A stretch of 58,417 bases of DNA from Phoronis australis (Eukaryota > Animalia > Phoronida), in the NCBI GenBank assembly GCA_002633005.1, contig NMRA01000444.1, positions 1 to 58,417 on the forward strand. Reading direction: 5' to 3'. Positions 907 to 33,928 of this stretch are shown in pieces (within the stretch, counting starts at the first letter, position 1; each line of letters begins with the position of its first letter). The notes under the pieces are model-generated. The model ran no database searches, was not told the DNA's origin, and saw only the letters and a list, made by a program, of their open reading frames with translations. A program made the translations under genes and the position numbers.

Positions 907-999
907 GGCACAGCACTACACCGTGCAGCAGAGCTGGGACGTACAGAGGTGGCGCGTGATTTGTGTGAAGCAGGCGCTAAGGTCAACAAGCAAGACAGG
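907..999 (+). CDS. Ankyrin-repeat exon ([31 protein letters not shown])
   Basis: ctgcag acceptor, gtaata donor, 93 nt, phase 0-0, matches ankyrin consensus TxLHxAAxxG...GAxVN. Confidence 0.92.
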
Positions 1000-3900
1000 G
1001 TAATAGAAACTACTTGAGACGATTTTATAATTGAGACAATGATATCTTTGTTACAAAGCTGTAAACTATCTGAAGTTTAACTAAACATGTTGTGTGTAAA
1101 TACACTTTCTATTTCTCATGATTTCGACATGTATTTTTCAATCTGTACCCGGTACATGCATCTTAAGAAACAGTGAGGTTTGAATTGTGTCAACAATATA
1201 TTTGGCGACTTAATGTTGATATTTTTCTATTCTTAATGGTAATCGTCCATTCAACATTACAACTTTATATTAAACAGGAAGCCGTTAAACCGGTGTATAA
1301 ACACAACATGGAAGGGTCACTGTGAAGTTATGGAGGCGCTCAGTAATTTCTGACAGTCGACGTCTACACCATGTTCTGTTCTTACTTCAACGTTTTAAAA
1401 TCACCTGTAACACTTGAGTGTTGAAATCATTACAAGTATTGTAGCGTCTTAGAGGGGTCAGTAATGTTTCATTTATGTCACCTTACAAGTTCACTTTGCC
1501 GCGTGTATGTTAATTTGCTCTAAACGTTGATCGTCCATTCACACATCTCCATTATATATTACATAGGAGGGCTGGACACCGCTGCACTGTGCAGCAGAGT
1601 GGGGTCATACACAGACAGTGAAGTGTCTTGTGGAACACAACGCTACTGTGGATGTCCGTACACAGGTAATTAATGACACACGGGTTGTTTAGTTGAACTA
1701 GTTGTTTACACAAGAGATGATTAAAACTATTGAGTAACAAATTTTGTTGATATTTTCCCAATTTAATATCCTTAAACAATTTTAAATTAAATGTCGTCTG
1801 CTTTCCAACAGAGAACTGCCAAAGCTGCAACCGAACATTTCAGTTGATTCATTATTGTTGTTTTATTTACCTATATATATTCTACATTTCGTCAAACAAT
1901 AGTTTCCTTCAGACGATCTGGATCGCCTCATTTAGTTTCAGATTTATTTTCTACGTTATTTTGATTGTCCAACACTTTACAGTGCACAATTACTTGCTGT
2001 GTGTTACCAGCCTGTAACGAGACGGGGAACACTGAACACGCTCTGTTGGTTTGTTCTAAAACTCAACATTTCCCTGTTGAAATCATTACAAATATTTTTA
2101 GCGTCTTAGAGGGGTCAGTCATGTGTCATTTATGTCACCTAACAAGTTCACTTTCCCCCGTGTATGTTAATTTGCTCTAAACGTTGATCGTCCATTCACA
2201 CATCTCCATTATATATTACATAGTGGGGCTGGACACCGCTGCACTGTGCAGCAGAGTATGGTCATACACAGATAGTGAAGTGTCTTGTGGAACACAACGC
2301 TACAGTGGATGTCCGTGATAAGGTAATTAATGACACACAGGTTGTTTGGTTGAACTAGTTGTTTACATAAGAGATGATTAAAACTGTTGAGTAACTAATT
2401 TTGTTGATATTTTTAGCATTGTAATGTCTCTAAACAATGTCAAATTAAATGTCTTCTGCTTTCCATAGCGGGGCCAAACACCGCTGCACTGGGCAGCAGA
2501 GGGGGGTCATACAGCCGTCGTACAGTGTCTCATCGAACACCGGGCCAACGTGAATGTCTGTGATGAGGTAATTATTGACACACAGGTTGATGAACACAAT
2601 ACGTGACTAGGCTAATTATTGCGTGTTTTAATCAAATATTCACAGATTTTAATTTTGTTTGTAAACGTTGAATTCACGGCACGTGTAGTGACGTGCACGT
2701 GACGTGACGTGCTCGCGACATTAAGTAATTAGAAACAGTTTTCACTTCACGTGGGGTTGTACATTGAGCAATGGTTCTTTACTTGCATTTTCATAGCACC
2801 CCCTAAATGAATGTGGCTCAGTTGTTATGTATAACATAAACTTGTGATATTTCAAATCATCTTTTCTCTCGTGTAACTACAACAGATCCGCATTGAAGAA
2901 ATCTCGCTCATTTATATCTGAGTTTAAATGCAGTTGTAGTCGTGCTTTGTTGAGTCGCCCGCTTTATACAGTAAGTATGCAACTGAAGGCGAAGTTCTGA
3001 AACAGAAAGGTATAAAGCGTGGCGCTCTGTTGGCGCACCCACTTCGCTATACATCATGCTGACCAGCATTCTATCATTTTTGTTCATTTACTGTAGGATG
3101 GAAACACACCCTTACATCTGGCATCCCAGACAGGACGGGCAGCAATCGTGGAGCTGCTGGTCCATGAAGGCAGCTGCGACGTGGCTGCCGTAAACAAGGT
3201 ATCTCAAGAGTGCTGTACTCAGAATTTAGTTAATGCTGCAATAAATGTGTATTCAATGAACATTGAGTTCGTGGAAATGTTCACTCATAATAAATATCTG
3301 ATCAAAAATGAACAACCTCTTTACGTGGAGTTATACAAAGAGTCACTCCTTCACTGCAAGTACCTTCCCACAACACGCAGTGAAACCAATGCCGCTGGTC
3401 TCATCCTACTATTGGGACATAAACTTAACAAACCAACGACGCCATAAGGCGCCAAACACAGGCACACATTTTGATATTCTCACTTCATAAAAAGATGCAA
3501 ATTTTTTATCAGGTCAGTGCTTCCAATCAGGTGTGCCCTTAGGGACCTCAGTAAAGAATTTTTGTTAAGGTTGCATTAAAATGCGATTATTTTAACACTC
3601 AGTTTTCAAAGTCTTGTAATTTCGTGGTTTACTTTTTTAATGTCACTACATTGCTGTGTAATATGTTCCTGTCATGATCTGATTTATATATTCTGTGATG
3701 GGGTAATGTGGGGGATGAGTTAGTCAAAGCCCAGGCTTTTGGAAGGGCACGTCCTGTTTTCACAATTCCAGAAGTCTGCCTTAAACTACATGTAAACCCT
3801 GGAAAAAGGAGAGCGCTGTAAACCTAAATCACGCGCCGTGATCTTTTGTGCTCCATCGTAAATCCAGGGTATTCGAATATGTTTGGTTTACCCCTGACGC

Positions 3901-6900
3901 GACCATCGTACATGTACATGTATTTTGGGTACCGGTTCAGGGTTCTCACCGCAGAGCATCACACAATACCTTTTGGAACAAAGGTTTCTGGTCAAAACGT
4001 TAGAGTTACGATTTCATAGAAATACGAATACGCAACAACTTAAATCTTTGTATCTTCTGAATGGATACATTGTAAGACAAACTCCTGTTTATCAAGGTTG
4101 AATTTACGTTTGGAGTGAGACTAAATCGAATCGAAAAAAATTAACACTTGCTGAAATTTCAACACTAGCGAGAACAGTTCGAGTTCTTGAACATAACATT
4201 TTCCATGATGTTTGCTATGAATGTAATCAGTGGAGAATGTGGAAGTTTTAAAACTCTTTCGTTAATAACGTTTAGGAATGTTTTGTAATAAAAATTTTGT
4301 TTCGCTTTACACCTGATAGACTTAAATGTACGAACTAAATTAATTCACTTTCCTTTTCTATGTGACTTTTCGGCAACATGTACTTTTATCTATGGCTATG
4401 GTGCAACATACTTTAATTACTTTGGTGTGAGCATTTTAGTAACTGAAACTATTTAGTGAACGAAATATCTACCAGAAAAGAAAAAGGTTCTGCTGAGTAT
4501 TTAAATTTCCAATAACCTCAATCAAAATTGCTTAGTATTGATCCGAGTGCACGACTGTGTATGTTCCTGGCGTGGACTGATTTATGTACTCTGTAATCGA
4601 CGGGTAAACTTGCGAACTCCATACGACGTCATTTGGCAAGGGTTTGTAAAATGTATTTAAAATTTGCTCCCGGTCCGGGCATAACCACCGTCCGCCACCA
4701 CTTGCACAAGTGACACGGTGTCGGGACCTGTACAACGTGTTTGGACTGGTCATGAGGAGTACGGCGTCGTCTTGAGAAATTTGATGCACATGTAGGAATA
4801 CAACACTGAAAGCTGCTCACGTTCGCGTGACCAGCAATGACGCCCAGTGTGACTCGATGGCCGTGGTGTTGTAAAAAAATCAGGAATATCGGTGAAAGTT
4901 TGTTATAAATTGATCCATTATGTTGTTGATTTAATACATTTCATACCGTAAGTAATACTTTATGAAGATGTGCAAGTGCTGCAAAAGTTTCAGCTAAAAT
5001 TTTGCTTGATTAACAAAGATATGCAAAGTTTAAATACAGTGTAAGGCAGTCAGACAAAACGACTGTACGGACTCGCCTGAGCCAACTGTACGGACTCGTC
5101 ATGAGCAGATGTTTGAAAACTGTACGAACTCGGCAGTGAACTGGTTAAGAATTAAACAAATCTTAACCAGAATAGACCGTTTAACTTGATAATTAGCAAT
5201 AGTTCGCGAGGAGTCTAGTTGGCTAATAGGTTATTTGAGAAAGATTGGATGTATTTGCAATTGATGTGTAAACGTGAGAATGGCACAGATAAGAAGTGTT
5301 AGGCCATTGTCATCAACCATTTTGGACTGCAAATGAAATTGATGTAGGAACAGTTTACGCATTTTTCCGATCAACCAACTTCAAGTACTGTGTTGGCACA
5401 CATCACTTTGAAATGTTGAAGTAATTGGTCACGGTATCGAGATCACGGCGATCAAGTACAAAGAATTAGGTATCTAGCCTTGTATGAACACAGCGGTTTG
5501 GAATGTTTCAGAGTAAAAAATATGGGTGCATTCCCAACACTGTTTTGGAGGTGGGCTGCGAAACCAGGTAAAGCAAAACCTGTCTATACGACATAATGAG
5601 TTTGATCACAAGAGTCCATTTATATAGAAGTCAAACGTAAAACGAGAAGGCAAAGATAAAGAATACACCGACAGAAAAGATTGCGAAAGGGATATAGAGA
5701 TACATGTAGATATAGCACGAGAATACAGTGTAATACACGAAATATGTGATGGGAAACAACGCTTTGAAAACAGTAGGGATGTCACACACGTTGGCCAAGT
5801 TTAATAGGATAACAGCTGATGGAACGTTCCCTTTAGACAATTTAGCGTTTATACTGTTTTTAGATTTGGCAGAATCGTTACCCACGACAACACCCTAACA
5901 ACGAGGTGCTCGAACATCTTTATGAAGATTTGGCGGAAATCAATGTGTTGATCATTCTCGAGCCAAACCTTGCGGTCTGCTGTATGGGAATTTTAGATAT
6001 TTCCTCCAGTTCGAAGTCGTTGCAACAGTCGGCTAATTTTGAAGTTTCGTGCTGGGCAATTTACGTGGTTTACGTGGCAGTAACCAAAAAATCTGTTATT
6101 TCTGGGAGATACATGTGTAGTCCGTGCAGTATGTCGGACAGCAAGTTTTTGGCCGGGAATCCGATTGAAAAGTCATTTGACATTATTTATCAAGATACTG
6201 ATTGATACGTACCGGAATGGGTTACTTTCTGCATGTATTGATGCATAATTAGACGACAACAATTTGAAAACACCGCCGGCTTAATGCTAAACCTTACAGT
6301 TGCTAAAGACGATTTTGGACAGTCACGCGAAACTGAGTATGACGAGTCCGTACAGATATTTTGAGAGGAGATGCCATAAAATGCAACATAACTTGAACTA
6401 CACATTACAAATACATGTAAGAACTGTACTTATCATACGCGTTTCCTATGGTTACATGGTGGTACTCATACGCAAAAATTTAGATAAACAAGAAAAACTG
6501 TAAAAAATTGACGCTCCAAGTTCATCGTTGTGTAAACAATTAGTGAAACCTCTTGAGCATAGTCAGTATGGGGACCCTATTAATGTAATTAAGGTCACAT
6601 CCAATCACTACCCTTCCACTGAATGCATGCCAACAGTTTCGTTGCAAAAAGTCATGTGTTACAAAGTTTACGATCTCATAAAGTACGCCTTGACGGTGAT
6701 TTTTTGCCGATTTTTCTCCTGACGACGCCGAAATCCTCATGACCAGTCCAAATACGTAGTGCAGGTCCCAACACCGTGAAGTGAGTTAAGTTGCAGAATG
6801 ATCGCCAACTGGCAAAAGTAAAAGGTAGCCTAGCTTCATTACCACCATTTTTTATTAACGTGTACTAACTCTAAACTACTATTATGTTCATTGGGCCGGT

Positions 6901-9900
6901 TCAAAGAGTCAAAAATAAAATTGACCGGAACTAAGTTCCAGCTGATTTTGTAATTCCATCAGCAATAGATTAGTCACAATTGCTGCGTTGTTCGACAGCC
7001 TGAAAGTTGCATGCCGTGCAAGTGCAATAAAATACCAATTATTGGAAATGGTAATCACAATTCTAATGCGTCCAAATAATGTTTGATTGGACACTCAAAA
7101 GATTGGTATCCAAAACACTTAACTTGCAAGCAAATCGATTCGATAAAAAACGTTAAAACTCAGCTATAGGTGCTCCGTGGGGTAAAGTTGGAATATCTCC
7201 ATTTCCTGAGTCCCAGCTAGCAGTCAAATCAACGGGCGGCGTTGTTTGATTTTGCAGCATCTGGTGGATTTCAGTTAGTCAGCCGACATGAACTGAAGTA
7301 AACTAAAAAGAGTACGTGAGTGTAACTTGACTTATCCGTTACAAATTTTTAGACGTTCATGAATTCAATTCTGAAATCAAGTTTCAAATAGAATTTACTA
7401 GAAATGTGAAAATCGCGAAACGGAAACACTCAGAGCTTAAGGCAGGTTTCGATTGCAAGTACATGTACATGTGAAATGTTTTAGCAATTTTTCTTTGAAC
7501 AAACGTATTACAGTTCGTGTACGCTGACCTAAAAGTGCACGGATACGGAAACGGCAAGTCACCGCAACGTGCAATTCGCAAAGTCTTTCATAAAAGGGGA
7601 TCTACGCGTATCGTCATTTAGATAATGAAGAGGTGCCTTGATGCCTGTGTGTGGTTGGTAGGCAAAGGATCAGGCAGCAATTGTCCCTGAATTAAGTAAA
7701 AATACAGGAAATTTGGATTACCAAAAGCAAAGACACCAATGCATTCATTGCTAAACTTGGAGACGTTTGAGAATTCTCATGGGCAGTGAAATGAACAGAA
7801 GATAACGTTCGGGGGAAAGGTCTGGAATAATCGTATATGTAACTGCTTCAGCTTGATTTCCCTTTATTAGGCTTTTTTGTCACTTTCCTTTTACGTTTTG
7901 AGTGAACATTCTACGCCACTTTCAATTTCACGACCCTGCTCAGCACTGGAAACATACGGTTCTTCTCTTCTTTGTTTTTTGAAACCTGAACCATTTTATT
8001 TCTTGTGATGGTGACATATCACTTCACACCGCGTCTGAGAATGCCAAGCTAATTGTCGTGAAACGTCTCGAAAGGGTGTTGGTGTCACGTTTGTCAACAG
8101 GTAAAACAGTAAATTAAATCAATTTGTCTAGTAAGACGAAACTTTACCAGAATAGTGAAAATATCGTCTAATTTTTTATAACTTTCTATTGTTGTGTTCT
8201 CTCCATCTTAGTGCTAAATGTCTAAGTATGTTGGTGTCTATGTTACAAGTTCCAGTGGGCAGCAAAAGTTATATGTCGTATAATTTATACTGCCCTTCAA
8301 TATTGTCAATTTTTTTGATAAACCTGACCGCATTTCCGAAATATTCACTTCGATGTACAAAAGAGATGCGTTAATGGTTGCTGGCGTGTTTTTGTTTTAC
8401 CTTTTCTTACGTATTAATTAGCATAAAATATAAATTCCATCTGCGCTTGTTGAACTTATCGTGTTCAATGATAAGCTAAGGTGCAGACATAATAAGTCTT
8501 TTTTATGAGCCTGAATTAATTCAATAACTACATGAAGCGTAAAGCATGACTATTCCTTTCCCCATTGTGTGTATTTGCAGTTTTTACGATGTTTGTTCTT
8601 TACCGTTTGATTGTAATCTCTTTTAAGGTTTGACTATGCCGACCTTACAGTACATGTTCGGATTACAAAAATTTCGGAACTCTAGTAACGTGCTCTGTTC
8701 TTGTCAGTTTGGGATCAGTAAAAGTTTCATTGCCGGTTATACGTAACTTGTTTACATATAACCCGTAAGCCAATGTGACTGATTCTGTTTTTGTACTTTT
8801 ACGGCATCTGCAAACATTTACGTGGGTATTTAGAAGTGAAAACTACAAAATCACGCAAAAACTCAAGCACACATACATGTGGATTTCCAACAGAAATCTA
8901 CATGTATTTATGCCTGTTGTATAGGGCATGCTTCTACACTGTATATGAAACACTTGAGTACAAAAAAGCTCCTCGATCTTGTCTGTTAGTTGGGAAAATA
9001 CCTAACTCCTTTTCTTTTAGACGACCCTGTAAGGAATCCAGATGTTGCCGAGGTAGTTTTTATTTAATTGGTCGCTAAGTATTAATTCTTAGAATTTTGA
9101 TGTTTTATGGCATCTTTACCGTGGGAAATAAAATTCTGGCATTCTATATTATCATTGTTACTTGGACTCTTAAGTCTGCATTGAATATACTCTTATTTTC
9201 TTATGGTGCGTAAAAAGAGTTCAAAACGAAGTCGGTTACAGCTGCAAACCCACGTTTCAAAACACCGTATCAAATTTGACACCGTTCCTAAGTAAAGTCT
9301 GCAGGTAGATGAGGTTTTAATAGAAGTTATGCGGGATAAATTTCTGGATTGGTGAACTTTTTCTTTTCTGTCACATTTTGAATCCGAATTTTGTACATGT
9401 ATGTTTTGAAATAAAGTCACGTGGTTACGAGCAATTGGTTGACAAATTTACACCTTAAACGGCGTGGATCCAGATGTAAGGGTTGATTTCTCGAACATTC
9501 ACATTTTCATAACAACGGTATATGCAAGTAAAAATACTCGCCACTAGCTCTGCCAACGAAATGTTCACAGCTTACCCACGTGTTTCTGTTCGTGTATTGT
9601 GAGTGTGAGAGTGAGTCCGTAAACTGGAGTTACTAAGTTTGTTAGCCGGGTTGTTAGGCCATCCTGCACATTGCGTTCAGCGTGCCATGACCAATGCATT
9701 GTCTAATTTGTAGAAACAATCCTCACGAACTGGAGAATTCACCGGTTTTATTTCAGAAATGCTTTTGCGCGCTAATCAGTTGCAAACTCGTCCTGTCCTA
9801 TAACAGCCACAATACTCGACACTGATCTTATCGACGACGAAGAAATAGTTGTATTGCGCAAACGACGAGTCGCAGGTGTAGGCAGCTGCTAGTGAAATTC

Positions 9901-21900: not shown

Positions 21901-22094
21901 AATGCCTTCTGTAATTGCGCTCTTATGTATGCAACCTTATATTCGTGTTTAATGTCATTGTTCTTGTTTCATGTATCTTACACGATAGCGTTTATGATTT
22001 TTAAATTTATTTGCCTTTGAAGACTGATGTATAGTCGAAGTACCGCTACTGTTTTATTATGATATGTTTTGTGCAAAGTTTTATTATATATTTA

Positions 22095-22156
<62 letters not shown>

Positions 22157-22320
22157 CGTGATGCCACTTACACTGGGCGATCTATTATATCAACTACCAT
22201 CCGATGAAAGACACTTGTGTTGACACTACGAAAGTTTGTTGTACAAACTAATTAAAGCAAAGAACAGCTTACTTTTCAATGCAACATGTATAAAAGAAGG
22301 TCTGGTACCCAAATACACAG

Positions 22321-22368
<48 letters not shown>

Positions 22369-22376
22369 AGTTCTCT

Positions 22377-22421
<45 letters not shown>

Positions 22422-25400
22422 GAGTGCCCAAATACGATTTTGTAATAGCATTAATGTATTAGAGAGGCGGACTTAGGGCGGCAGGGCAGGCGGCACGGGC
22501 ACCCACCATTTGACAGACGCGAAAAGTAAAGCACCAAAAGCGCGGGAAACATTGCGTTCATTAATTAACCCCTGTAATTATCATATTGCCGAAAATTGAT
22601 TAGAGAAAATATGGAGTTTTAGTCTGTGTGTGGGGGGCGAAGGGTCCGATTTAGACCAACGTAGTTGTAACTACCTATACTGTATGGCTAAGTAATGTCG
22701 CTCCCGGTCGATATGCTCGTGGTATACCAGGTGGCTGCCAGTGGTGCAGCGCACCACCATCGTCTGCTCCATTGTGCATTTGTTCTTTCAAAGTAAACGT
22801 AAGCTCAGTGACAATGAGGAAACAGAAACTGCTGGTAGCATGTAAATTTTAATCAAATTCTCAGTGTAACAATCAAAATCTCATAATTGTTTATTTGTAA
22901 AACATTAAAACCAAGGCGATTTGCAAATCAAGCGCTAGTTAATGCCATCCCTAAAAACGGATTTGGTCTTTTGGTCAACTGAAGACTGTTTTAATCTTAA
23001 CTTCTGCTACGAACTGTGTGAACACTGCGGAAAAAGCAGGTTCTCGCCAAGGCTGTGGACCATAAAAAAGTTTATCTCCTACAGTACCTCAGTAGTTGAA
23101 GCACTGTGGACAATTGAAGACCAGACGCGCTAGAGTCAATAGTTTGTTTGTTTGAATCCGTACAGTTTCAATAATTATTCAGGTTTAAATCACCTTGCCG
23201 TCGAAGGCTGGTTATACCTAAGAAATCATGAAAAATGCTTGTTTTCAGAGGAGAAAACAAAATCTTACCATGGACGGAAGGGCGTGAAAGCCTCCTCTCT
23301 TTCGGCGCCTCTATAATGGCGGAAAAAATGTTGCCCTCCACTCGATACCCTAGATCCTCCACTGCATAAACTTTGAATCAAAACAGTTCTGAATAAGTTT
23401 ATGCAAGCAGACGACAAAACTAGTCAGCACAAAAGTAAGAGCAGGCGTGCGTTCAGTAGACGCTAGGACCTACGCTAGGGCCTGGCTACAATCTAGTCAA
23501 GGTCACGCGTTCTTATTTAAAATACACGGCAATATCTCACGTAATCTCAAGACGTCTTGCTTTTTAGGGAGGTCCTAGCGTTACTGAACGGGAGACAGAC
23601 CTGTGTACCATAAGCAAAAAATGCAAATTCGTACGGAAATCAAGCCTCCAGTACCCAAGTACGCACGGCCAGGCAAAAATACGCAAATTCAGCAAATTCC
23701 AAAGGGATTATTAATTCACTTGTTTATCGCAGATTTGTGGTCTAAACGGACGGGAAAGGAGGTTTTCAAGTTAGAAATAACAGAACATATTGTAAAATCA
23801 TTATTTTAGCCAAAAAGTTGAGCTACAGACTCGGAAAACTTCCTTCGTTTCATTCTCGAAATAGCCTGATAATCGGCGAATCGCGAGGCCTCTTCTATCG
23901 GTATGCGTGTCACAGGCCTAACCTATAAGCAACAACTTCTGTTATTTGTTGATTACTTACTTCGTTTAATAGTCCTTTTGCGAGTTGATAACAATAACGC
24001 GAGATTACGTGAGATTTAACTGTGACGTCACGGGAAGTAGGGCAAAAGCTTGTTGTTTGGCTCATTTGCCCAATACGTTAGCAGAGTGTGTTCTGTTATT
24101 TTCTTCCACTTTTTGGCCGTTAAGTTCGAAAAATGCCAAACAAGCATTGCTGTTATGGCAAATGAAATTCAGATTCGCACTACAATACGTTCTATCGCGT
24201 TTTTTTTACTAATTTCGTTTCGTGTATTTTAAACGGGCGATAGGCGAAATCCGCTCACTGATTATGTTTTCACCACGTCAAAAATACATTCTACATCTAA
24301 AATTGTCACCTAAAAAGACGCTTACTTTCCCCAGTGGTCCTTTCTGCTTCTAAACATATCTTCGATGAAGCATAGCTACGGGAATTCAATTGACTTTGGC
24401 GAAGAATTCCAACTCCACGTTAAGGTTACTGTTAACTTCAACCGCGCGCGCGATAACCGCAAAGTAGTTAACTGGTCAGGTGAGTATGAGACAAAGGCTA
24501 GCGCGAGACTGAGTGAAGCGTGAGACCTGGCGCGTGACACTTGCAAAATAACATGAGAACATATCAAGTGAATTTGTAAGATTTGTTTTCCTTGGACTTA
24601 TTGTTCGTGATTTCACGTAACTTCCTCAAAATGGCGCACTGTTAGAGAAACTTGAGCGAACCGCGAGGTTTTCATGGATAGGTTCAAGTTATTTGTATCC
24701 AGAGTCAGGGTATGTGTTAATTCATTATAACTCCATGTGCGCATATGCATGTTTCATTTGATTTTATTTGCTGTATTTTGAAGTGAGTCAGTTCTTATGG
24801 GGATAAACTATCGCTCCTGTACGCTTGCGGCATTCGGCCTAGACCGGGTTGAGTTCCAATTTCAGTCCGTTCACAGCTGCGCACAACATAACAAGTTCAC
24901 ATTTTCTTCGTCCATTCACAGTTATTCCACGATCCATCTACCATCTTTTAAGTTGTGATAGCGTTTTAAGCGTAAAATTCACCATAAGAACTCCAGTAAA
25001 ATTTAGCGTGTGTACATGTAGCAATATGGCGGGTTTTGCCCCTTTTCCGGTGACGTCACATTGACTAACGAGAAACTCGCAAGTGAGCTATTCCGGCTAT
25101 TTGCGGCCAATTACATATTGTTAACAAAATGGCAAAGCACGAGAGGTCGCACATTCCGAGCTGTGAAGAAAGTAGCTTCTGAAAGAAGGGAACGCCTGTT
25201 TTGAGACGTTATTCCAAAGAATGACAATGTCTTATTCAAGGGACCGTGGAATTTAGTGACTACAAGTTGTATAGCGTGTTTTTTGCGGACATTGTGACTG
25301 CACTGACTTCGTAGCTTGTTGAACTGACGATAAAACTCGAGCCACAGTCGAGCATGAAGTACGGTGGTACGTGTTCACAGACACTTGCATTGAATAATTA

Positions 25401-28400
25401 TTCAAAACTTTTGTGAATGGTTAAGAAAATATCGGTGCAAAACATTGTCCAGTGCAAATTCATCAGCACATTTTTGCAGATATGTTTTTGTGTTAAGAGA
25501 CGAGGTGTACATAAGGCATGTATTAACATAACTAAGTTCAGTAAGGACATTTTGTGTTGAGTAACAGGATCTTTTCGCTAAGCGCATTGTACTTCAACTA
25601 AACAATTTATATTATTTTGAAAATTGGTGATCAATTCACTACATGTGTTTTAGAAATTGAAACTGTTTGAGAGGCAAGGAAAAGTACCCATGCGCGTACC
25701 CGGGGGGCTTGAATGAGTCCATATGTGCCAAAGTGGGCGAAAAGGTCCCGAGAGAAACCAAAAGTGCGATAAAACTAAAGAGGCAAGAATTTGGCGATGC
25801 TAAGCAGCTAAACTAAGCCCCCTCTTTTTTATTTTTTATTTTTATTTTTTTAGTCGGTAAATTTGTTCTGTACGTGGCGGAAGTCTGCAAATTTACTGGA
25901 TAATCTGCAAATCTGGCGTTCAGAGTACCCTAATGTAGTTTGTAGAGGATAGTGGCATAACATGAGCACAAACCTTTCGAGACATTCAGTTTGAGATAAA
26001 AAAGAATGAGAATTGAAACGAACACTGGAGCTTTCAACTAACAATTAGCAACGTTTGTCGTCTAAGTGTCAGCAGGAAATGTGGTTTGGTGACAAATCTA
26101 TGTAACGTCGCCAAACATGTAGCCAGTCCCCTATTGAAGGAGAAAACTTCTTGTCAAGTTGTTTTTAATAAATTCCGAGAACAGAGTCTTTGCTCCGGAC
26201 GAGGTTGTAACATCTATCTTTATCATTGCGCAATTTATGAATGAATACTCCTCCTCAGAAAACTCTGCTGGTGGCTTAGAGTTTTCTTGCAAAAGATCCT
26301 GTTCCAGACTCGAGAAGTTTTTTGTATGAAGCTCAAATTGGAGACCGTTTGTATTTGAAAATTATTCAGAGTTAGGTAGGTCATAGACTCATTGGCAAAC
26401 AACATTAGTGCCAAGCCGTTGACGATTACACTTACAGGTGTATGTCACCATAGCGACATGTAAAGACCTCTATTTTGAAAAATCATCTTAAAAATTTTTC
26501 AATGGAAACGTCTCCTGTGTCGTCTGGTCTTTTCGAGTATAACAGCAAGTAGTAGAACATTATAATTTAATACTGGAGCATGTGTAACTTGACACAGCGT
26601 TGGATCCTGTGCAAACTAGTAGAAGACAGCTACAGTACCAGCCTGTTAACTTATAATTGTGTCAATTTGTTCTCAGGAATTACGGACCCGGCAACCGAAC
26701 GTCATCACCAGCTGTTACGAGAGATATCTGACCGTCTCATTGAACGGGATTTTGACAGACTAAAGCAAGAGTGTACACGTTGGATAAAGTAAGAAAAGCA
26801 TTTTTATTGTGAATTATACGTGCACCGTGCATGTCTGCTAATAATCGCTACGCTTTAAAGTCCTGCTCTCACACGTTGTTAACCCTTATTAAATAGTTAG
26901 AGAATGTTAAAAGGATCCAAGAAGTACCTACCACATAACTAATACACGATCCGTACTCGAAAAAATTCTAAATGAACGCGCCACTCACGATTCGCACCCG
27001 AAGAACCACCGCCATTTTGAACTTGCCACGAACCCGGAAGTACAATTTATTCAGGAACCCAGGCCGAAAAAACGCCGTCAGTGCGACTGGAGCAGTGCCT
27101 GTACTTTTACCAGCCAGCAAACGGGGATAAAATAATCGACAGGGTGCCTTAATTTTAATAAAATCAAACTACGGAAAATTTTATCGAATTTGCTGATGAA
27201 ATATGGCGAATAAATTTTGACAGAAATTATTTTGCCAGACTCGGGACCGCAGCCTATCGGACCCGGTGCAGATCGAGACCAGACACTGGCGAACGGTAAA
27301 TGCGTGCGGTTGCAAGCTGTTTTGTCGAAATAAAATGGTCAAATCATCAATGCTGCATATATTCAAGGGTAGTTTCAGACACTTGCATGAAATTACTTGC
27401 TGGTTAGTCATTTGTCACACTGCCGTGGCAGACCTTAGTTAGCCTCAGTCACCAGCTACCAGTGAAGACTATCGTCAAAATACACCTTGTTAGTAGGCCT
27501 ATACAGTTTTGCGTGAAGGCTACCCTTAGGCCTAACTCGCTCAAACGAGGTTTATTTAGAACTTGGGTACATCTAGCGAACTGTGCAAAGTTGTTGGCTT
27601 TCAATAGACATTTTCCCAGACTTTATATGAGCGCACCAAGCCTAAAAGAATGGGGGGCTGGAATTTTTGGGAATGTTTATCTTTTACTGTAAGATTCTTA
27701 ATTTTGGTACTTCCTGTCTCTAGTGGAATATTGTCTCATTTTCTACTTTTTTCGAAATTCGTGCTTCTGTGACTGAGGCAGACCTTTTTCTAGTTCTCCA
27801 AAAAGGGGGCTCGTTCGAGCACATAAGTATGACAAGTCCAATACAACATGCTATCATTTTTTATTCATTAACCCAAAATGATTCAAACTTTTAACATAAT
27901 AAGTAACTTAAAATGCACAATACTTTACAACGTTTAGCATTACAAACACTATTCAACAGCAACAGTTTCCATGATATGAAAGTGGACATACATGTAACTA
28001 TTACCATGGTGACGGAATAGTGTTTCCTTACACCAGAATTTGACAAGCATCATTTAAAAAATACGAAGTTGCAAGGAACAAGAATTAGAGGCTTGAAGCT
28101 TCACAATCCAACATAGCTTATTTCTCAAATTAAGATTATTCATATTGTTGACTTGAGCGATAACCTGAATTAAGAAGCAATAAGTTACAAAACATGACTT
28201 GAAAGCAATTGAGACTTAAAATTTTGAAAAATATGAATCATTTTGTGACACCGAATCAAGTCTTGAACAGCAGTTGACAGTCAAACAAAAAACCATTTCA
28301 AAATTATTTCAATTATTTTTTTAGCTTAGTGTAAGATCACCTGAATGGGAAATTTACAGTAAAATAATTCGAATATATCTTATTTTTTTGCACAAAAACA

Positions 28401-31400
28401 CGAAAATTGAACAAAGTTTCTGTTTTGTAGCAACGTTTGTCAAAATGTATCAAGTTAAATCTTCACAAATTACATTGAACATGCCTTTCAGTTCAGCAAT
28501 AGTCGCCATGTTGTCGGTGCCGCCAGAAATGAGACAAAGTCCAACGGTAATTGTGAGTTCATTTATCACTTAATGAGTAACAACTGCGAGGCTGAAATTT
28601 GGTGAACACTGTTAAATCGTGCAGAATAGTGAGTAAAGATATGTCTAACTAAATTTCACCGTAATTTGTTGGCGAAAACAATTTACACAAAGTTTTAAAC
28701 TCGTAACTTTTCCCGCTGTCCTCCAATATGGCCGACGCGATCCAAACAAAGTGACCCAAATTTCGCCACAAAACTTGAAATAACTTTCCACTGCTTGCCC
28801 CAATTTTGATACTTTTTCGATTTTTACTGAGTAGAATGTACTACGTTTCCGATGATAGCAAAGTATTTTTTTAAAACGAGAAAAAAATAAAACCGAAAAT
28901 AGATTGGTTCGACTCATATTGGTTCCTAGGTTCGACCGGCCTACGTAAGGAACTAACAACCAATGCTATTTTTACAGACTAAGTACGCGTAACATTCCAA
29001 AAAAATCAACGACTACTAAAGTCTACAAACTATAAATACACTACACATGCAAACGAATCACGAGATATTACTAATAAAACAAAATAATGAGGACTTTTCG
29101 AGCAAGCCATAGCACATTCAGTTACAAGGAAAAAATAGCGGCGTTCAGGACAAGTTCCTGAACTGATGAGCCGGAAATGTGGGTACGGAAATAACCAATG
29201 ACAGCCGGTAATTATGCGGTCACAGAGAAGGGTCAAATACTGTTAAAAACCGCTGTTGGCAAGAAAGACGAAAAGAATATAAAGAAAGGGTGTAGAAAAT
29301 AAGAATTTATGTAGTAAGTATTTTTTGGTACTGGAACCACAAGGGCAGTTTGAGAGCAGGACTTTAAAGTTATGCTGAGCTCTGCTTTGTCCAATTAAGA
29401 ACCGCAAATTGCTACGTGAAATAAAATGCGCATCCAGCTTTGGAATAAGTCAAAAACAAAAGATATCCTCTCCAATCCCAGGATGAACAACAGTAAATAA
29501 AAATTGTCAATCTGCCGTATTTCACGCTTCCATTTTTGTCAGAGACGTAAAATGAAGCCAGTCTCCATTACGTTAAGCATGGTGTCTTAAGCTTATAGTC
29601 TAATTCACATAAGAGCTCCCAATATTGCTTTAAATCTCAACCAGAGGACTTTTTCGAGATTAATACACAGGCGGCGCATCATAGGCTGTTGGGGGGATAT
29701 AGGCCCCCACTTTTTTCAGTGCTTTACCGCCTATGTACTCGTGGAAAAATTCAGTAATGTGTATAGGTTGTGTGTAGGCTCAATGGGGCAGACTGGGTAA
29801 GATTTCGTACTTTCATGTGCCCGTTCATCAAATGCTTTTAGAAATGTTCCATTTCTCCTCTCAGTTTCCAATCTTTAAGAAATTTAGATTGGGGCATCAG
29901 ATGAACGCCAAAATGTTATCCAGTTGTCAACGATAAAACAACTCTGTTATACAAATTATTTACATGTATGGTTAACGGCTGAATATGGCGGGTGAGTAGA
30001 ATATGAGCTTTTTAGGGGTGATTTTAGAATCACGATGTTTGCGTCTGCATACACGTGCACGCAAATTCTTCAACTGTAAATGAAGTGAATGGAAATGTCT
30101 TGATTAAAGGCCAGCAACACTGCAGGGTATAACAAGCACTCATGAACTCCTCGAACAACTCGAGAGGCAAGGAGTTATTAGATCTGGAGAGTACAGCAAT
30201 CTAATTGATATACTGGGCCTGCTCGATCTGAACGCTCTTAAGGATACAGTGGAAGGCCTATCACGTGAAATAAAAGCACAAGAAATGAGAGGTAATTTTG
30301 CCCTATTACTTGCAACCACTCAACTGTTATTAGTGACTAAAAGTATATGTTTTCTATGAGTTTACTTTGAGTGTCTTTATGGTTTCAATGCTATTGTAAC
30401 TGCAACGGCTGGTGAGTAAAACGAGCAATGATACTCGTTCTCCATGCCAAATTATAAGGCCATTGACAGCCCTTGATGTTAAGACCAGGGTCGACCTCGT
30501 CCGCCTGGTGCATGACAAACCTCCAATAAGAAATAACAATGGTTTAACTCCTGAATGATTTCGTGTATTTCTGACGTGGCCATGATTAATGTAAATGGTA
30601 AACGTCATTTTCTTTTGACAAAAATGGCCTCAAACCGACATTTCCCGTGGCTCACTAGTTTAAAGTCCTTCTCTCACGCGTTGTTAACCCTTGTTACATG
30701 GTTAGATGATATTATAAGGATCCAAGAAGTACTTACCCCGTAACTAACACACAATCCGTACTCGAAACAAGTTTAAATGAACGCGCCACTCACGATTCGC
30801 ACCCGAAGAACACACCGCCATTTTGAGCTTGCCGCGAACCCGGAAGTTCAAATCATTCAGGAAACCAGGCCGAGAAAACGCCGTCAGTGCGACTGGAGCA
30901 GTGCCTGTACTGTTACCAGCCAGTAAGCGGGGATAAAATAATCGACTGCGCGCCTTAATTTTATTAAAATCAAAGTACGGACAATTTCATCGAATTTGCT
31001 GAAGAAATGTGGCTAAAAATTTTTGACAGAAATTATTTTGCCAGACTCGGGAGAGCAGCCTATCGGACCCGGTGCGGATCGAGATCAGACACTGGCGAAC
31101 GGTAAATGCCTGCGGTTGCAAGCTGTTTTGTCGAAGAAAAATGGTCAAATAATAAATGCTGCATGTATTCAAGGGTAGTTTCAGACACTTGCATGAAATT
31201 ACGGGCTGGTTAGTCTTGTGTCACACTGCCGCGGCAGACCTTAGTTAGCCTCAATCACCAGCTACCAGTGAAGACTATCATCAAAATACAGCTTGTTAGT
31301 AGGCCTATACAGCTTTGCACCAAGACTACCCTGGTCACTGGCCACAGCGCTCGCTCAAACAAGGTTTATTTAGAAATTGGGTACTTCTGGCGAACTGTGC

Positions 31401-33928
31401 AAAGTTGTTGGCTTTCAACAGAGATTTTCCCAGACTTTGTATGAGCGCACCAAGCCTAAAAGAATGGGGGGGGGGGTGGAATTTTGGAAATGTCTATCTT
31501 TTACTATAAGATTCAGTGGGTATGTTCAGAGATAGGAATTGCAGACTCTAAATTTTGGTACTTCCTGTCTTCTAGTGGAATATTGTCTCATTTCTTACTT
31601 TTTTTCGGAATTCGTGCTTCTGTGACTGAGGCCGACCTTTCACCGAGTTCTACAAAAAGGGTGCTCGTTCGAGCACGTAAGTATGACCAGTCCAATACAA
31701 CATTTTATCACTTTTTATTCATTAAGCCAAAATGATTCAAACTTTTAACATAATAAGTAACTTAAAATGTACAATACTTTACAACATTAAGCATTACAAA
31801 CACTATTCAACAGCAACAGTTTCCATGATATGAAAGTGGACATACATGTAACTATTACCATGGTGACGGAATAGTGTTTCCTTTCACCAGAATTTGACAA
31901 GCATCATTTAAAAGTATGAAGTTGCAAGGAACAAGAATTGGAGGCTTGAAGCTTCACAATCCAACAGAGCTTATTTCTCAAATTAAGATTATTCATATTG
32001 TTGACTTGATAACCTGAATTAAGAAGCAATAAGTTACAAAACATGACTTCAAAGCAATTGAGACTTAAAATTTTGAAAAATATGAATCATTTTGTGGCAC
32101 CGAATCAAGTCTTCCACAGCAGTTGACAGTCAAACAAAAAACAATTTCAAAATTATTTCAACTATTTTTTTAGCTTAGTTTAACATCACCTGAATTGGAA
32201 ATTTACAGTAAAATAATTCGAATATATCCTATATTTTTTGCACAAAAAACTCGAAAATTGAACAAAGTTTCATTTTTAGCAACGTTTGTCAAAATGTATC
32301 AACGTTAAATATTCACAAATTACAAAGTAGCCGATTGAACATGCCTTTTAGTTCAGCAAATCGCCATGTTGTCGGTGCAACGAGAAATGAGACGAAGTCC
32401 AACGGGAATAGTGAACACATTTATCACTTAATGAGTAACAAGTGCGAGGCTGAAATTTGGTGAACACTGTTAAATCGTGCAGAATAGTAAGTAAAGATAA
32501 ATCTAACAAAAGTTCACCGTAATTTGTTGGCGAAAACAAGTTACACAAAGTTTTAAACTCGTAACTTATTCCGCTGTCCTCCAATATGGCCGACGCGATC
32601 CAAACAAAGTGACCCAAATTTCGCCACAAAACTTGCAATAACTTTACACTGCGTTCCCCGATTTTGATATTTTTTCGATTTTTACTGAGTAGATTGATGA
32701 TAGCAAAGTACTTTTTCAAAACGAGAAAAAAATAAAACCGAAAAAAATTGGTTCGACCCATATTGGTTCCCAGGTTCGACCGGTCTACGTAAGGAACTAA
32801 ACACCAATGCTATTTTAACATACTAAGTACGCGTAACATTCCAAAAAAATCAACGACCACTAACTACAAACTATAAATACACTACATCAGCAAACGAATC
32901 ACGAGATATTACTAATAAAACAAAATAATGAAGACTTTTCGAGCAAGCCATAGCACATTCAGTTACAAGGAAACTATGGGGGCGTTCAGGACAAGTTCCT
33001 GAACTGATGAGCCGGAAATGTGGGTACGGAAATAACCGATGACAGCCGGTAATTATGCGCTCACAGAGAAGGGTTAAATACTGTTAAAAAATCGCTTTTG
33101 GCAAGAAAGGCGGAAAGAATATAAAGAAAGGGTGTCGAATATAAGATTTTATGTGGTAGGTATTTTCGGATACTGGAACCACATGGGCAGTTTGAGAGAA
33201 GGACTTTAAGCTTGCCTTGTCAATCAGGACCAGTCCAGATTATCGCAGTCACTGTTTTTAAGCAAGAGGTGGATAAAACTCATCTGAAATAGTCACCTAT
33301 AACTTTACTAAATGGTTTTGCCCTCCTTGCAGTTAGAAACCAGGACAGTCTCAATATTTGGGTTATGCATTCGGGACATAGTAAGAACAACTGGACAATG
33401 TATAGACAATACATAACAACACGATGGACCCAGTGCCCTGTTAAATTGGCAAAACGTACACTATTGAGAAACTGTTCAAGACGCTTTTAGAATAAAAATA
33501 GCTGTTCGTAAGTCCACACAGTCAAGTGGGCTTTTTGGAACGTCTTTGATCTCGTGTACAAATTATACAAATTAGCAACGAAATATACCCCTAACCAAAT
33601 CCGGACTTATCTGTTGGGGCGGACATAACACACCCAATACTATGTCTATCCGAATGTAGGCGTGGCATAATTGTACTGCCATAACCAATTGCCACCAGTC
33701 ATCAATTCCATGCCCACACAGGTTGTCAATCAGCCACCTTTCTCTTGCCATTATTTTTGTCTATATGTTGACAATTCGCGCACCATACACATAATCAAAT
33801 CAGCGATCACATTGTCAACATACGTTATACGGTGTAGACCTCTCAATTTATTAACAGGACCACCGGATGAGGCAGTCGAGTCCCACAGCCAGAAGTTAGA
33901 GGAGGATACTGAAAGAGTCATTACGTAA
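907..33928 (+). CDS. Multi-exon gene, 5'-partial: ankyrin repeats - ZU5-like - possible UPA-like - DED protein. Exons 907-999, 1567-1665, 2224-2322, 2469-2567, 3097-3198, 12209-12265, 13951-14089, 17900(or 17921)-18759, 19746-19800, 26677-26788, 30110-30291, possibly 33333-33380, 33858-33924/33928
   Basis: All exons are AG/GT-flanked, and intron phases chain without a stop (0,0,0,0,0,0,1,0,1,2,1). Translations give ankyrin consensus, ZU5-like and DED-like sequence. No start codon in the window; 3' end unresolved. Confidence 0.8.
1278..1345 (+). pseudogene. Decayed ankyrin pseudo-exon (..[11 protein letters not shown]..)
   Basis: Upstream intron (atcgtccattcaac...tatattaaacag) is paralogous to the acceptor regions of the 1567 and 2224 exons. 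The GH-E-V-x-x-L remnant is out of frame with the acceptor and followed by a stop. Confidence 0.55.
1567..1665 (+). CDS. Ankyrin-repeat exon ([33 protein letters not shown])
   Basis: 99 nt, catag/gtaatt boundaries, canonical GxTPLHxAAxxGH. Confidence 0.95.
2224..2322 (+). CDS. Ankyrin-repeat exon ([33 protein letters not shown])
   Basis: 99 nt, catag/gtaatt boundaries, ankyrin consensus. Confidence 0.95.
2469..2567 (+). CDS. Ankyrin-repeat exon ([33 protein letters not shown])
   Basis: 99 nt, ccatag/gtaatt boundaries, ankyrin consensus. Confidence 0.95.
3097..3198 (+). CDS. Ankyrin-repeat exon ([34 protein letters not shown])
   Basis: 102 nt, tgtag/gtatct boundaries, ankyrin consensus. Confidence 0.95.
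4714..6778 (+). mobile_element. Decayed about 2.07-kb DNA transposon with about 66-bp TIRs (CACGGTG termini), 6-bp TSD AAGTGA and a THAP-like coding relic
   Basis: 4714-4779 is the reverse complement of 6713-6778 (8 mismatches). AAGTGA lies at 4708-4713 and 6779-6784. Relic peptides ILDCK..SLRIFP..W and GAFPTLF (5280-5546) and [15 protein letters not shown] (about 5824-5868). Confidence 0.85.
8007..8100 (+). pseudogene. Decayed ankyrin pseudo-exon ([21 protein letters not shown] / frameshift / KGVGVTFVN)
   Basis: Ankyrin-like translation, 94 nt, intact cag|gtaaaa donor, acceptor AG lost (ttcttgt), internal frameshift. Confidence 0.7.
12209..12265 (+). CDS. Ankyrin C-capping exon ([19 protein letters not shown])
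   Basis: ttttgcag/gtatga boundaries, phase 0-0, typical terminal GxTAxD motif. Confidence 0.85.
13951..14089 (+). CDS. Low-complexity linker exon ([21 protein letters not shown]...DESG)
   Basis: ttaccag acceptor and g|gtcagt donor; phase 0-1 is needed to join the ZU5 exon. Confidence 0.7.
14282..14509. mobile_element. MITE with perfect 50-bp inverted repeats
   Basis: 14282-14331 is the exact reverse complement of 14460-14509. Confidence 0.85.
15660..15710. repeat. TACATG/TACATT hexamer microsatellite
   Basis: Direct tandem repeat. Confidence 0.85.
17900..18759 (+). CDS. Large exon encoding a ZU5-like domain plus a beta-rich (possible UPA-like) domain
   Basis: Only long real ORF in the window. 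[25 protein letters not shown] and LSKPVEVRV match ZU5 hallmarks. Phase-1 acceptors at 17900 or 17921; cat|gtaagt donor. Confidence 0.8.
19746..19800 (+). CDS. Short linker exon ([18 protein letters not shown])
   Basis: tatag acceptor and g|gtaaga donor; phase 0-1 bridges the ZU5 exon to the DED exon. Confidence 0.7.
20301..20450. mobile_element. About 150-bp MITE (TIR CGTTCAGTAA..), copy 1
   Basis: Imperfect terminal inverted repeats; homologous to 23444-23594. Confidence 0.65.
21831..22418. repeat. Cluster of (TA)n/(CA)n microsatellites (about 21831-21868, 22098-22153, 22321-22357, 22380-22418)
   Basis: Direct observation. Confidence 0.95.
22462..23364. mobile_element. About 0.9-kb non-autonomous hAT-like element
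   Basis: Ends gaggcggacttagg...cctagatcctccactg resemble the CAGTGGCGGATCTAGG termini seen elsewhere in the window. Internal 22683-22780 is homologous (inverted) to 58279-58372. Confidence 0.5.
23444..23594. mobile_element. About 150-bp MITE, copy 2
   Basis: cgttcagta...tactgaacg inverted ends; homologous to 20301-20450. Confidence 0.65.
23862..25099. mobile_element. About 1.24-kb non-autonomous TIR element; core about 24159-24830 shared with 56119-56825
   Basis: TAGCC..GGCTA ends; internal inverted pair tgtgacgtcacgggaagtagggcaaaa (24021) and ttttgccccttttccggtgacgtcaca (about 25034-25060); long dispersed homology. Confidence 0.65.
26677..26788 (+). CDS. DED exon 1 ([38 protein letters not shown])
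   Basis: ttctcag/gtaaga boundaries, phase 1-2; matches the DED helix 1-2 pattern LLxxISxxLxxxDxxxLKxxC. Confidence 0.85.
26859..29363 (+). mobile_element. 2.5-kb non-autonomous Kolobok-like DNA transposon, copy 1
   Basis: TTAA on both sides, AG...CT termini, 13-bp perfect TIR AGTCCTGCTCTCA; end-to-end homologous to 30664-33205. Confidence 0.85.
30110..30291 (+). CDS. DED exon 2 ([60 protein letters not shown])
   Basis: taaag acceptor and g|gtaatt donor; phase 2-1 joins DED exon 1 in frame; matches DED helices 3-6. Confidence 0.85.
30664..33205 (+). mobile_element. 2.5-kb non-autonomous Kolobok-like DNA transposon, copy 2
   Basis: TTAA TSD, TIR AGTCCTTCTCTCA...TGAGAGAAGGACT, same orientation as copy 1, unrelated flanks. 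Confidence 0.85.
33333..33380 (+). CDS. Possible small phase 1-1 exon ([16 protein letters not shown])
   Basis: ccttgcag acceptor and gtaaga donor, frame-preserving; no homology support. Confidence 0.3.
33858..33928 (+). CDS. Post-DED exon ([22 protein letters not shown]); ends at TAA or at a gtaaga donor after 33924
   Basis: ttaacag acceptor, phase 1 compatible with the previous exon, coding-like composition. Confidence 0.6.

Follow-up and report, generated by a model that had tools for sequence, protein, structure and literature searches.

The window analysed here, a 58,417-nucleotide stretch of Phoronis australis DNA (contig NMRA01000444.1), holds 12 plus-strand exons within 907-33928 which, joined at their AG/GT borders, give 655 open codons followed by a stop (Table 1). 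Exon phases run, in order, 0-0 (six times), 0-1, 1-0, 0-1, 1-2, 2-1 and 1-stop; GT-AG is kept at all 11 introns, and the 655 codons are free of frameshifts. The chain as read within the window contains no start codon, and the 5' end of the gene lies upstream of the window. Two further candidate exons were rejected: 9021-9052 has a stop in phase 0, and 14539-14598 combines a poor donor and a phase mismatch with a lack of codon bias. Both transposon copies are intronic, and no Rfam family was found in the window. Judged from the letters of the DNA, the 12 exons likely form one gene that would encode ankyrin repeats, a predicted ZU5-UPA and a likely DED, an ANK-ZU5-UPA-DED order that is the best reading of the DNA.

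Table 1. Features of the proposed exon chain (positions within the window; the slash marks the usual place of cleavage).
Feature	Position	Strand	Length and phase	Remarks
Ankyrin repeat exon, first in window	907-999	+	31 codons, 0-0	Pfam Ank 28.5 bits
Ankyrin repeat exon	1567-1665	+	33 codons, 0-0	Pfam Ank 41.3 bits
Ankyrin repeat exon	2224-2322	+	33 codons, 0-0	Pfam Ank 46.1 bits
Ankyrin repeat exon	2469-2567	+	33 codons, 0-0	Pfam Ank 44.8 bits
Ankyrin repeat exon	3097-3198	+	34 codons, 0-0	Pfam Ank 39.9 bits
Putative half-repeat capping exon of ankyrin stack	12209-12265	+	19 codons, 0-0	
Low-complexity linker exon	13951-14089	+	46 codons, 0-1	
Large exon, predicted ZU5-UPA	17900-18759	+	860 nt, 1-0	286 open codons
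Predicted single ZU5	~17900-18340	+		followed by a short helix
Met-Phe/Gly at usual cleavage place	18310-18318	+		residues 137-139; register by eye
Predicted UPA	~18385-18759	+		
Candidate short linker exon	19746-19800	+	18 codons, 0-1	one of two 0-1 candidates
DED exon 1, predicted first two helices	26677-26788	+	1-2	length fits Pfam DED positions 1-32
DED exon 2, predicted remaining helices	30110-30291	+	2-1	Pfam DED positions 33-82 of 82
Candidate terminal exon (acidic tail of 23 residues, then stop)	33858-33928	+	phase 1	good acceptor, coding-like bias

The ankyrin repeats named in the first-pass annotation were borne out, all five repeat exons passing the Pfam Ank (PF00023) cut-off of 21.1 (28.5-46.1 bits). 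From its likeness to a repeat start, we infer that the exon at 12209-12265 is an ankyrin cap; its G1 bias falls in the top 0.4%, its donor is good and it lacks a stop. The 1567-1665 exon with its flanks reads as a recent tandem duplicate of the 2224-2322 exon, 1419-1807 and 2075-2465 being 91% identical. Nine of the ten differences between these two exons fall in changed codons. Diversifying selection on the ankyrin exons was considered and rejected (pN 0.112 against pS 0.066 and 0.076 in the intron; p 0.5-1.0): among exon pairs pN/pS is ~0.8-1.7, not a significant departure from neutral. It is likely that this ankyrin part is one of a lineage-specific family in which repeat arrays vary through the duplication of exons. 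A broken ankyrin-like piece lies at ~1278-1350, and a 2.5-kb duplication excludes the DED exons.

Expression was followed in four RNA runs chosen by species label and mapped to 1-19,000, about 18-19% of each raw run being sampled; no RNA data set was listed as containing the ZU5 exon. Depth is ~91-388 at position 959, within an ankyrin exon, and 0.15-0.62 over the ZU5 exon, about 100-fold below the ankyrin exons. Reads over the ZU5 exon are sense-strand, matching the ankyrin exons in direction, and occur in all three raw runs; the two bins before the exon are empty in all four runs. Upstream, a GT-AG joint from 2322 to 3097 is present in 8, 4 and 17 reads, and the 2224-2322 exon has joints at both ends in reads whose letters differ from the window, some running to the 2469-2567 exon. 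The joint from 3198 to ~12216 (7, 3 and 8 reads) also differs in its letters, and the reads that cross it, which cease to fit after 21 letters, are probably from paralogues. Paralogues are indicated as well by the ankyrin reads, mostly 90-95% alike to the window, together with two different cap-exon junctions; over the whole of 1-19,000, reads at least 99% alike make up 39-52 of the 2,024-3,403 mapped per raw run.

A possible explanation for the gap in depth is that the window holds two separate transcription units. One would be a gene with ankyrin repeats only, belonging to the expressed family; the other would be CARD8-like, with the layout ZU5-UPA-DED, and might or might not start with the 13951 linker exon. 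The misfit of the 3198-12216 reads points the same way, as do the lack of an ANK-to-ZU5 joint among the 15 joints listed of 89 in 1-19,000, the in-frame ATGs no more than 73 bases 5' of the ZU5 acceptor, and introns of 9.0, 6.9 and 3.8 kb, which leave space for other ends and starts. However, an ankyrin signal derived mostly from paralogues would account for the difference in depth, as the scarcity of closely matching reads allows; the cap exon has a good donor and stays open, and the phases of the linker exon are those that continuation needs. The stretch around the upstream ATGs is moreover intron-like: the 73 bases 5' of the acceptor have a GC of 0.29, which fits an internal exon, and the ATG at 17827 was rejected as a start on its intron-like surroundings. 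We consider two units unlikely.

The large exon is predicted to encode one ZU5 followed by UPA. Its 286-codon open stretch has a chance probability of 7e-8 at the intron stop rate. In the ESM Atlas, its three best clusters are ZU5 (0.94, 0.94 and 0.93; Pfam shares of 39, 47 and 85%), and nine of the ten best family-bearing matches, in a list of ZU5, UPA and FIIND clusters, belong to one clan, although on the tool's own gauge the match is weak (recognition 2071, below 2300; shared features 154-158, below 170). An unscored comparison by eye with the UNC5B and ankyrin-B rows in supplement 2 of PMC8195603 also matched: in common with UNC5B and the ankyrin-B ZU5B, the exon runs from a GG start through a P-x-A turn and KPV to an SF-x-T strand, followed by a helix and two UPA strands ending YC. 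Pfam returned no family at E<=10, ZU5 (PF00791) and UPA (PF17217, PF17809) included, for the whole exon or any of its four sub-pieces, and a PDB sequence search gave no solved chain at E<=10. A word-indexed search confirmed none of 2,263 longer and none of 737 similar-length candidates as homologues, and HMMER found no homologue among 1.84 billion representatives, its sole match, P0001, being rejected as a summed match of query residues 6-44 to bacterial Calx-beta repeats. None of 112 metagenome-contig matches to the exon's pattern was confirmed, and ZU5 sequences were absent from one prokaryote genome and 14 controls. Because no homologues were recovered, no alignment of the exon could be built. 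The single-sequence models of the region (pLDDT 31.4 and 34.1) are unusable for reading a fold, so the fold searches made with them, without a match at E<=0.001 or Z>=5, are uninformative on the fold. The ZU5-like exon of the first-pass annotation thus resembles ZU5 plus UPA by weak ESM features and by eye, and was missed by Pfam, HMMER and the fold searches.

In self-cleaving relatives the cleavage site precedes the last ZU5 strand (PMC3210808). In the by-eye register, Gly and not Ser occupies the nucleophile position of the predicted ZU5, as in UNC5B, and the exon contains no His-Phe. Its only Phe-[STC] sites are at residues 133 and 250; the first, Ser-Phe/Cys (residues 132-134), was rejected as a cleavage site, being mid-strand and matching by eye the non-cleaving Ser-Phe-Thr of ankyrin-B. 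We predict that this ZU5 does not self-cleave: Gly at the cleavage position makes self-release of the PIDD/CARD8 type unlikely, and an UNC5B-like adaptor passing from a closed to an open state would fit better.

Scanned singly, exon 30110 matches DED (PF01335) with 19.5 bits (E 0.0012) over half the domain, below the cut-off of 35.9, and exon 26677-26788 gives no DED match, only a sub-threshold Myb match; the two-exon DED proposed earlier is thus backed by its second exon and not by its first taken alone. No other death fold (Death, CARD or Pyrin) was returned for exon 30110 by Pfam at E<=10. For the same exon the two top ESM matches are unnamed bacterial clusters, and the best named cluster is DED; scores order as DED (0.87, 0.84), Death (0.83), Pyrin (0.80) and CARD (0.78), all below 0.9. 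DEDs carry an RxDL motif at the last helix, where exon 30110 reads L-L-D-L, with Leu in place of Arg. Its acceptor (AAG) is weak, yet scores best of the two open phase-2 acceptors, and a homologue search confirmed none of 80 candidates.

If the last domain were instead a divergent death domain or another death fold, the gene would be an ordinary ANK-ZU5-UPA-DD variant. Such a reading could draw on the sub-threshold, half-domain score, on the ESM margin of 0.04 between DED and Death, and on the frequency of ZU5-UPA-Death in the invertebrate lists of PMC8195603 supplement 4 (in part). Against it, Pfam offered DED and no Death, CARD or Pyrin, and the match reaches the end of the DED profile while the length of exon 1 can supply positions 1-32. 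We hold this variant to be improbable, and conclude with moderate confidence that DED is, by a narrow margin, a better match for the domain than DD, CARD or PYD.

The joining of these parts depends on the linkers. Between 12266 and 17899, 13951-14089 is the only 0-1 candidate, and it is coding-like, with a GC1 reached by 0.3% of open non-exon stretches, though it takes part in none of the 15 joints listed. The 19746-19800 exon is supported less well: its codon bias is not unusual, and a 0-1 candidate would occur by chance in its interval with a probability of 0.66 without a GC filter and 0.09 with it. It is needed for the frame from UPA to DED, since the chain without it stops at codon 545. 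A further linker candidate, 24335-24479, was rejected as lying inside a dispersed repeat, and the last exon is one of six phase-1 candidates 3' of DED exon 2. The phase-consistent chain claimed at first reading accordingly holds in that its 12 exons are open and bordered by GT-AG, with its consistency hanging on two linkers that are low in complexity and were selected because their phases suit.

The locus might also be a paralogue that was shuffled not long ago or is in decay, with hardly any expression and little selective constraint. The very low depth over the ZU5 exon, the neutral-looking divergence of the duplicated ankyrin exons, the broken repeat near 1278, the weak 30110 acceptor and the failure to find a homologue would all be expected of such a sequence. 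Against this, 655 codons persist without stop or frameshift, with every intron GT-AG, both transposon copies in introns and sense-strand reads in each raw run. We think this reading quite unlikely.

Several known systems come close to the predicted protein. Canonical ankyrins (24 ANK, ZU5-ZU5-UPA and DD; PMC5135030) share its order of ankyrin repeats, linker, ZU5, UPA and death fold, and by eye the large exon follows the second ZU5, helix and UPA start of ankyrin-B, neither having a self-cleavage motif there. They differ in their tandem ZU5 and DD, against one ZU5 within 286 codons and a likely DED here; in their 24 repeats, against five and a cap counted in the window only, the 5' end being outside; in the ten exons of ZU5-UPA in a Ciona ankyrin (PMC5135030), against one; and in their high conservation, against the lack of any PDB match. 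UNC5B (3G5B; PMC3210808, PMC9162469, PMC8195603 supplement 2) resembles the predicted protein in its single ZU5, UPA and death fold and in Gly for Ser, but has an ectodomain and membrane helix, neither present in the window, where ankyrin repeats stand in front and a likely DED behind. CARD8 and NLRP1, in which FIIND (ZU5-UPA) is followed by CARD (PMC3210808, PMC7794386), likewise have a single ZU5-UPA, a disordered stretch before ZU5 and a C-terminal death fold other than DD, the linker before it being ~20 residues in CARD8 (PMC3210808) and ~26 here. They are cut at Ser-Phe/Ser, the freed fragment leading to caspase-1, whereas here we find Met-Phe/Gly, ankyrin repeats and a likely DED; a C-terminal CARD had no Pfam match here and the lowest ESM death-fold score for DED exon 2. 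Their CARD ends correct the earlier statement that ZU5-UPA modules end in a death domain, and give a death-fold swap a precedent.

PIDD1 also sets a repeat solenoid before a ZU5-UPA-death-fold tail, and the first-pass annotation had called the locus PIDDosome-like. This comparison did not hold: PIDD1 has LRRs, two ZU5 domains, His-Phe/Ser and a DD (PMC9162469), while the repeats within the window (5' end outside) are ankyrin and not N-terminal LRRs of the PIDD1 kind, one ZU5 is predicted, His-Phe is missing and Gly stands at the site. With a likely DED instead of a DD, there is no basis for recruitment of RAIDD and caspase-2.

Shuffling of such parts is already well described in marine invertebrates, and ours is one locus. 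Sponges, corals, echinoderms and amphioxus have shuffled proteins of immune type in which ZU5-UPA, ankyrin and DED are each found, in combinations such as TRADDN+ZU5+ZU5+UPA+Death, Ankyrin+DED and UPA+CARD (PMC8195603, PMC2575513). Neither 'UPA+DED' nor 'ZU5+DED' is among the matches listed for the accessible parts of 13 supplements, the lists in supplement 4 of PMC8195603 being centred on TRADD-N and GT4 proteins. A literature search, with subscription journals mostly outside its coverage, found no published ZU5-DED, DED-ZU5, UPA-DED, ANK-DED or ANK-ZU5.

Our preferred reading, to which we give a probability of roughly 0.4, is that of a one-gene cytosolic adaptor with at least five ankyrin repeats, a predicted single ZU5-UPA with Gly at the cleavage position and a likely C-terminal DED, opened without cleavage and with DED output. 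The ZU5 would hold the DED closed, as it holds the death domain in UNC5B, until the module was opened, without self-cleavage, either by a partner or foreign protein that binds the ankyrin stack or through clustering on that stack. The UPA, which promotes filaments elsewhere (PMC7794386), might bring down the oligomerisation threshold, and the DED, once released, could then seed a DED assembly (of the sort treated in PMC11874512) with a FADD-like or caspase-8-like protein, its output being death or inflammatory. A repeat sensor coupled directly to DED signalling, as first proposed, is thus a fair inference from the layout, resting on a ZU5 call that has no Pfam match and a DED call below the Pfam cut-off.

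A single gene need not signal death at all. Its DED might act as short cFLIP or PEA-15 do, serving as a decoy or simply as a scaffold, or the whole protein might be an ankyrin-like adaptor outside death signalling: there is one DED and no enzyme domain, the RxDL Arg and a self-cleavage site are absent, PEA-15 binds ERK2 through its DED (PMC11874512), and ankyrins share the domain order while the function of their DD is uncertain (PMC5135030). The fast divergence, the paralogues and the duplication of repeat exons nevertheless look more like conflict genes than like the conserved ankyrins. In the latter, identity between cnidarians and mammals is still ~50% (PMC5135030), whereas the ZU5 exon finds no solved chain at E<=10. 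This alternative is unlikely, if one to be taken seriously.

Should the adaptor reading hold, a combination of UPA with DED would add a third output beside the death domain (PIDD1, UNC5, ankyrins) and CARD (NLRP1, CARD8), and would reveal a module able to drive the FADD/caspase-8 branch. With the cleavage serine missing, the protein may be a test case, outside UNC5B, for a ZU5-UPA that gates a death fold by shape alone. More doubtfully, the locus may represent an invertebrate sensor family in which the ankyrin arrays are exon-shuffled and a non-cleaving ZU5-UPA switch nucleates DED filaments that directly activate a caspase-8-type protease; such a family would be to DED what the UPA-DD (PIDD1) and UPA-CARD (NLRP1, CARD8) platforms are to DD and CARD.

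Twelve forward-strand exons with AG/GT borders join into 1,968 bases, that is 655 codons and a single terminal stop, in DNA with a G+C content of 36-44%, long introns and plentiful repeats. An acceptor site precedes the first exon, which lacks a start codon, and positions 1-906 contain no additional ankyrin exon; the 5' part therefore lies outside the window. Two low-complexity linker exons were chosen to complete the chain, and we therefore computed the chance of such exons from a null of 81 kb, taken from the opposite strand and from sequence further downstream: For the two linker intervals, the chance of a 0-1 candidate was 0.53 and 0.66 by splice scores alone, and 0.07 and 0.09 with a GC of at least 0.50 added. 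The longer linker is strongly coding-like by codon position. Since the shorter is easily matched by chance on splice scores alone and is not set apart from non-coding DNA by the same test, the UPA-DED link is the model's weakest joint. The phase-consistent chain of the first-pass annotation thus keeps its open frame and splice borders, but with two linkers chosen to fit, one of them weak; the twelve exons probably form one gene.

Positions of the predicted gene and of other features
Feature	Position	Strand	Remark
Gene model	907-33928	+	12 exons
Ankyrin repeat exons	907-999, 1567-1665, 2224-2322, 2469-2567, 3097-3198	+
First intron	1000-1566
Ankyrin-like piece	1278-1350		good acceptor; one frameshift, one stop
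Cap exon (half-repeat)	12209-12265	+
Longer linker exon	13951-14089	+
MITE-like element	14282-14509		perfect 50-base inverted repeat; reads on both strands
RNA-empty stretch	16485-17752
ZU5 exon	17900-18759	+	860 bases
Met-Phe-Gly	18310-18318	+	in place of cleavage site
Shorter linker exon	19746-19800	+
Dispersed repeat pair	22723-22994, 58049-58344		69% identical
Dispersed repeat pair	24180-24833, 56119-56828		72% identical
DED exons	26677-26788, 30110-30291	+
Non-coding element, two copies	26853-29369, 30657-33211
Assembly gap	38809-39561		753 N, downstream of gene model
zf-RVT match	46260-46652	-	weak (E 0.076); possible LINE fragment
Surroundings of THAP match	~52200-57300		broken frames
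THAP domain	55643-56095	+	24.0 bits, barely above Pfam cut-off 23.9

The ankyrin repeats proposed earlier are confirmed, all five repeat exons passing the Pfam cut-off. The second and third are a recent tandem duplicate, flanks included (91% identical), whose differences mostly change residues; the rate of such changes does not significantly exceed that of introns or of synonymous sites, and therefore neither diversifying nor purifying selection is shown. The decayed-looking ankyrin piece in the first intron matches none of the five intact exons at the DNA level.

Three raw RNA runs and one contig set under the same species label were mapped to positions 1-19,000. The ankyrin exons are covered to depths of tens to hundreds, with exon-exon joints, and most reads are 90-95% alike to the window, their loose ends carrying ankyrin exons absent from it. 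The joint from the last repeat exon to the cap exon occurs in 7, 3 and 8 reads, and the contigs show it in two forms, every one of these sequences differing in letters from the window; we take them for paralogues or very divergent alleles. The first intron is itself covered by sense-strand reads (depth ~20-250) and by a 577-base contig, probably either because it is retained or because that stretch is exonic in a paralogue. The ZU5 exon is transcribed at low depth (0.15-0.62 in all three raw runs), solely on the strand of the ankyrin reads, and is uncovered in the contig set. Several bins between 3,800 and 12,700 show intronic depth of similar size, which is compatible with pre-mRNA of a long transcript, yet weakens the ZU5 signal. 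No joint from ankyrin to ZU5 exons appears among the 15 listed of 89 joints.

The ZU5 exon is open over 286 codons (7e-8 by chance). Searches of Pfam, PDB and by HMMER returned no relatives. In the ESM Atlas, three ZU5 clusters rank on top (0.94, 0.94, 0.93), followed by UNC5B, FIIND (the ZU5-UPA unit of CARD8/NLRP1) and UPA/ZU5 clusters, although both recognition (2071) and the number of shared features (154-158) fall short of the tool's marks; Porifera and Echinodermata are the commonest neighbours, which together with the character of the sequence suggests a marine invertebrate. Set by eye, unscored, beside UNC5B and ankyrin-B as printed aligned to FIIND in a supplement (file 2) of PMC8195603, the exon follows their succession of features: GG early on, then a P-x-A turn, KPV, an SF-x-T strand, the last ZU5 strand, an ankyrin-B-like helix and two UPA strands that end in YC where UNC5B reads RVYC. 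A ZU5-like exon is thus favoured by rank and order, but less firmly than first claimed.

PIDD1 cleaves itself between His-Phe and Ser (PMC9162469), and CARD8 and NLRP1 between Ser-Phe and Ser, directly before the last ZU5 strand, requiring Ser, Thr or Cys at that position (PMC3210808). His-Phe is absent from the ZU5 exon, and the predicted position, in a register set by eye, holds Gly after Met-Phe, much as UNC5B has Leu-Gly there. Self-cleavage therefore appears unlikely from the sequence; it would become conceivable were the register off, because Cys directly follows the Gly and Ser-Phe-Cys lies five residues upstream.

For the last domain, Pfam matches the second DED exon to DED positions 33-82 of 82 (19.5 bits, E 0.0012, below the cut-off of 35.9) and to no other death fold. 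Counting 32 residues back from the match reaches residue 9 of the first DED exon, whose length therefore suits the first two helices. In ESM, DED narrowly outranks Death, Pyrin and CARD, with two unnamed bacterial clusters ranking higher still. RxDL is a DED motif, and its Arg is absent from the candidate. Among death folds a DED is probably the right one, if less firmly than the two-exon domain first described, being a sub-cut-off match to half a domain.

The introns after the two DED exons each hold one copy of a non-coding element (89.6% identical over 2.58 kb), TTAA-flanked, starting AG and ending CT, with terminal inverted repeats of ~14-20 bases. By sequence, one non-autonomous DNA transposon has inserted here twice, its ends presumably Kolobok-like. 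The broken frames around the THAP match may be DNA transposon remains; the pieces scanned there matched no family.

Domain order is shared with ankyrins (in passages of PMC5135030); on the features tested, the predicted protein falls outside ankyrin, PIDD1 and FIIND. Shuffling of ankyrin, ZU5-UPA and death-fold parts is described from sponges, corals, echinoderms and amphioxus (PMC8195603, with ZU5 occurrences 1-90 of 96 in its supplement 4; PMC2575513, PMC3482391, PMC12909245, PMC11463336, PMC7883297). Neither UPA+DED nor ZU5+DED occurs among the entries listed in the survey supplements (PMC8195603) or in the published papers searched.

The original interpretation holds in part: the protein would be an adaptor whose output is likely a DED, but probably not one of the self-cleaving PIDD type. 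By analogy, the protein would work most like a soluble UNC5B tail in a CARD8-like layout. The chain would be one protein whose ZU5 closes over the DED, as over the UNC5B death domain (interface in PMC3210808); ankyrin engagement would open it, UPA would then help oligomerisation, as UPA does elsewhere (PMC7794386), and the DED would enter assemblies of the FADD or caspase-8 type (PMC11874512), a reading to which, as a whole, we give a probability of roughly 0.4.
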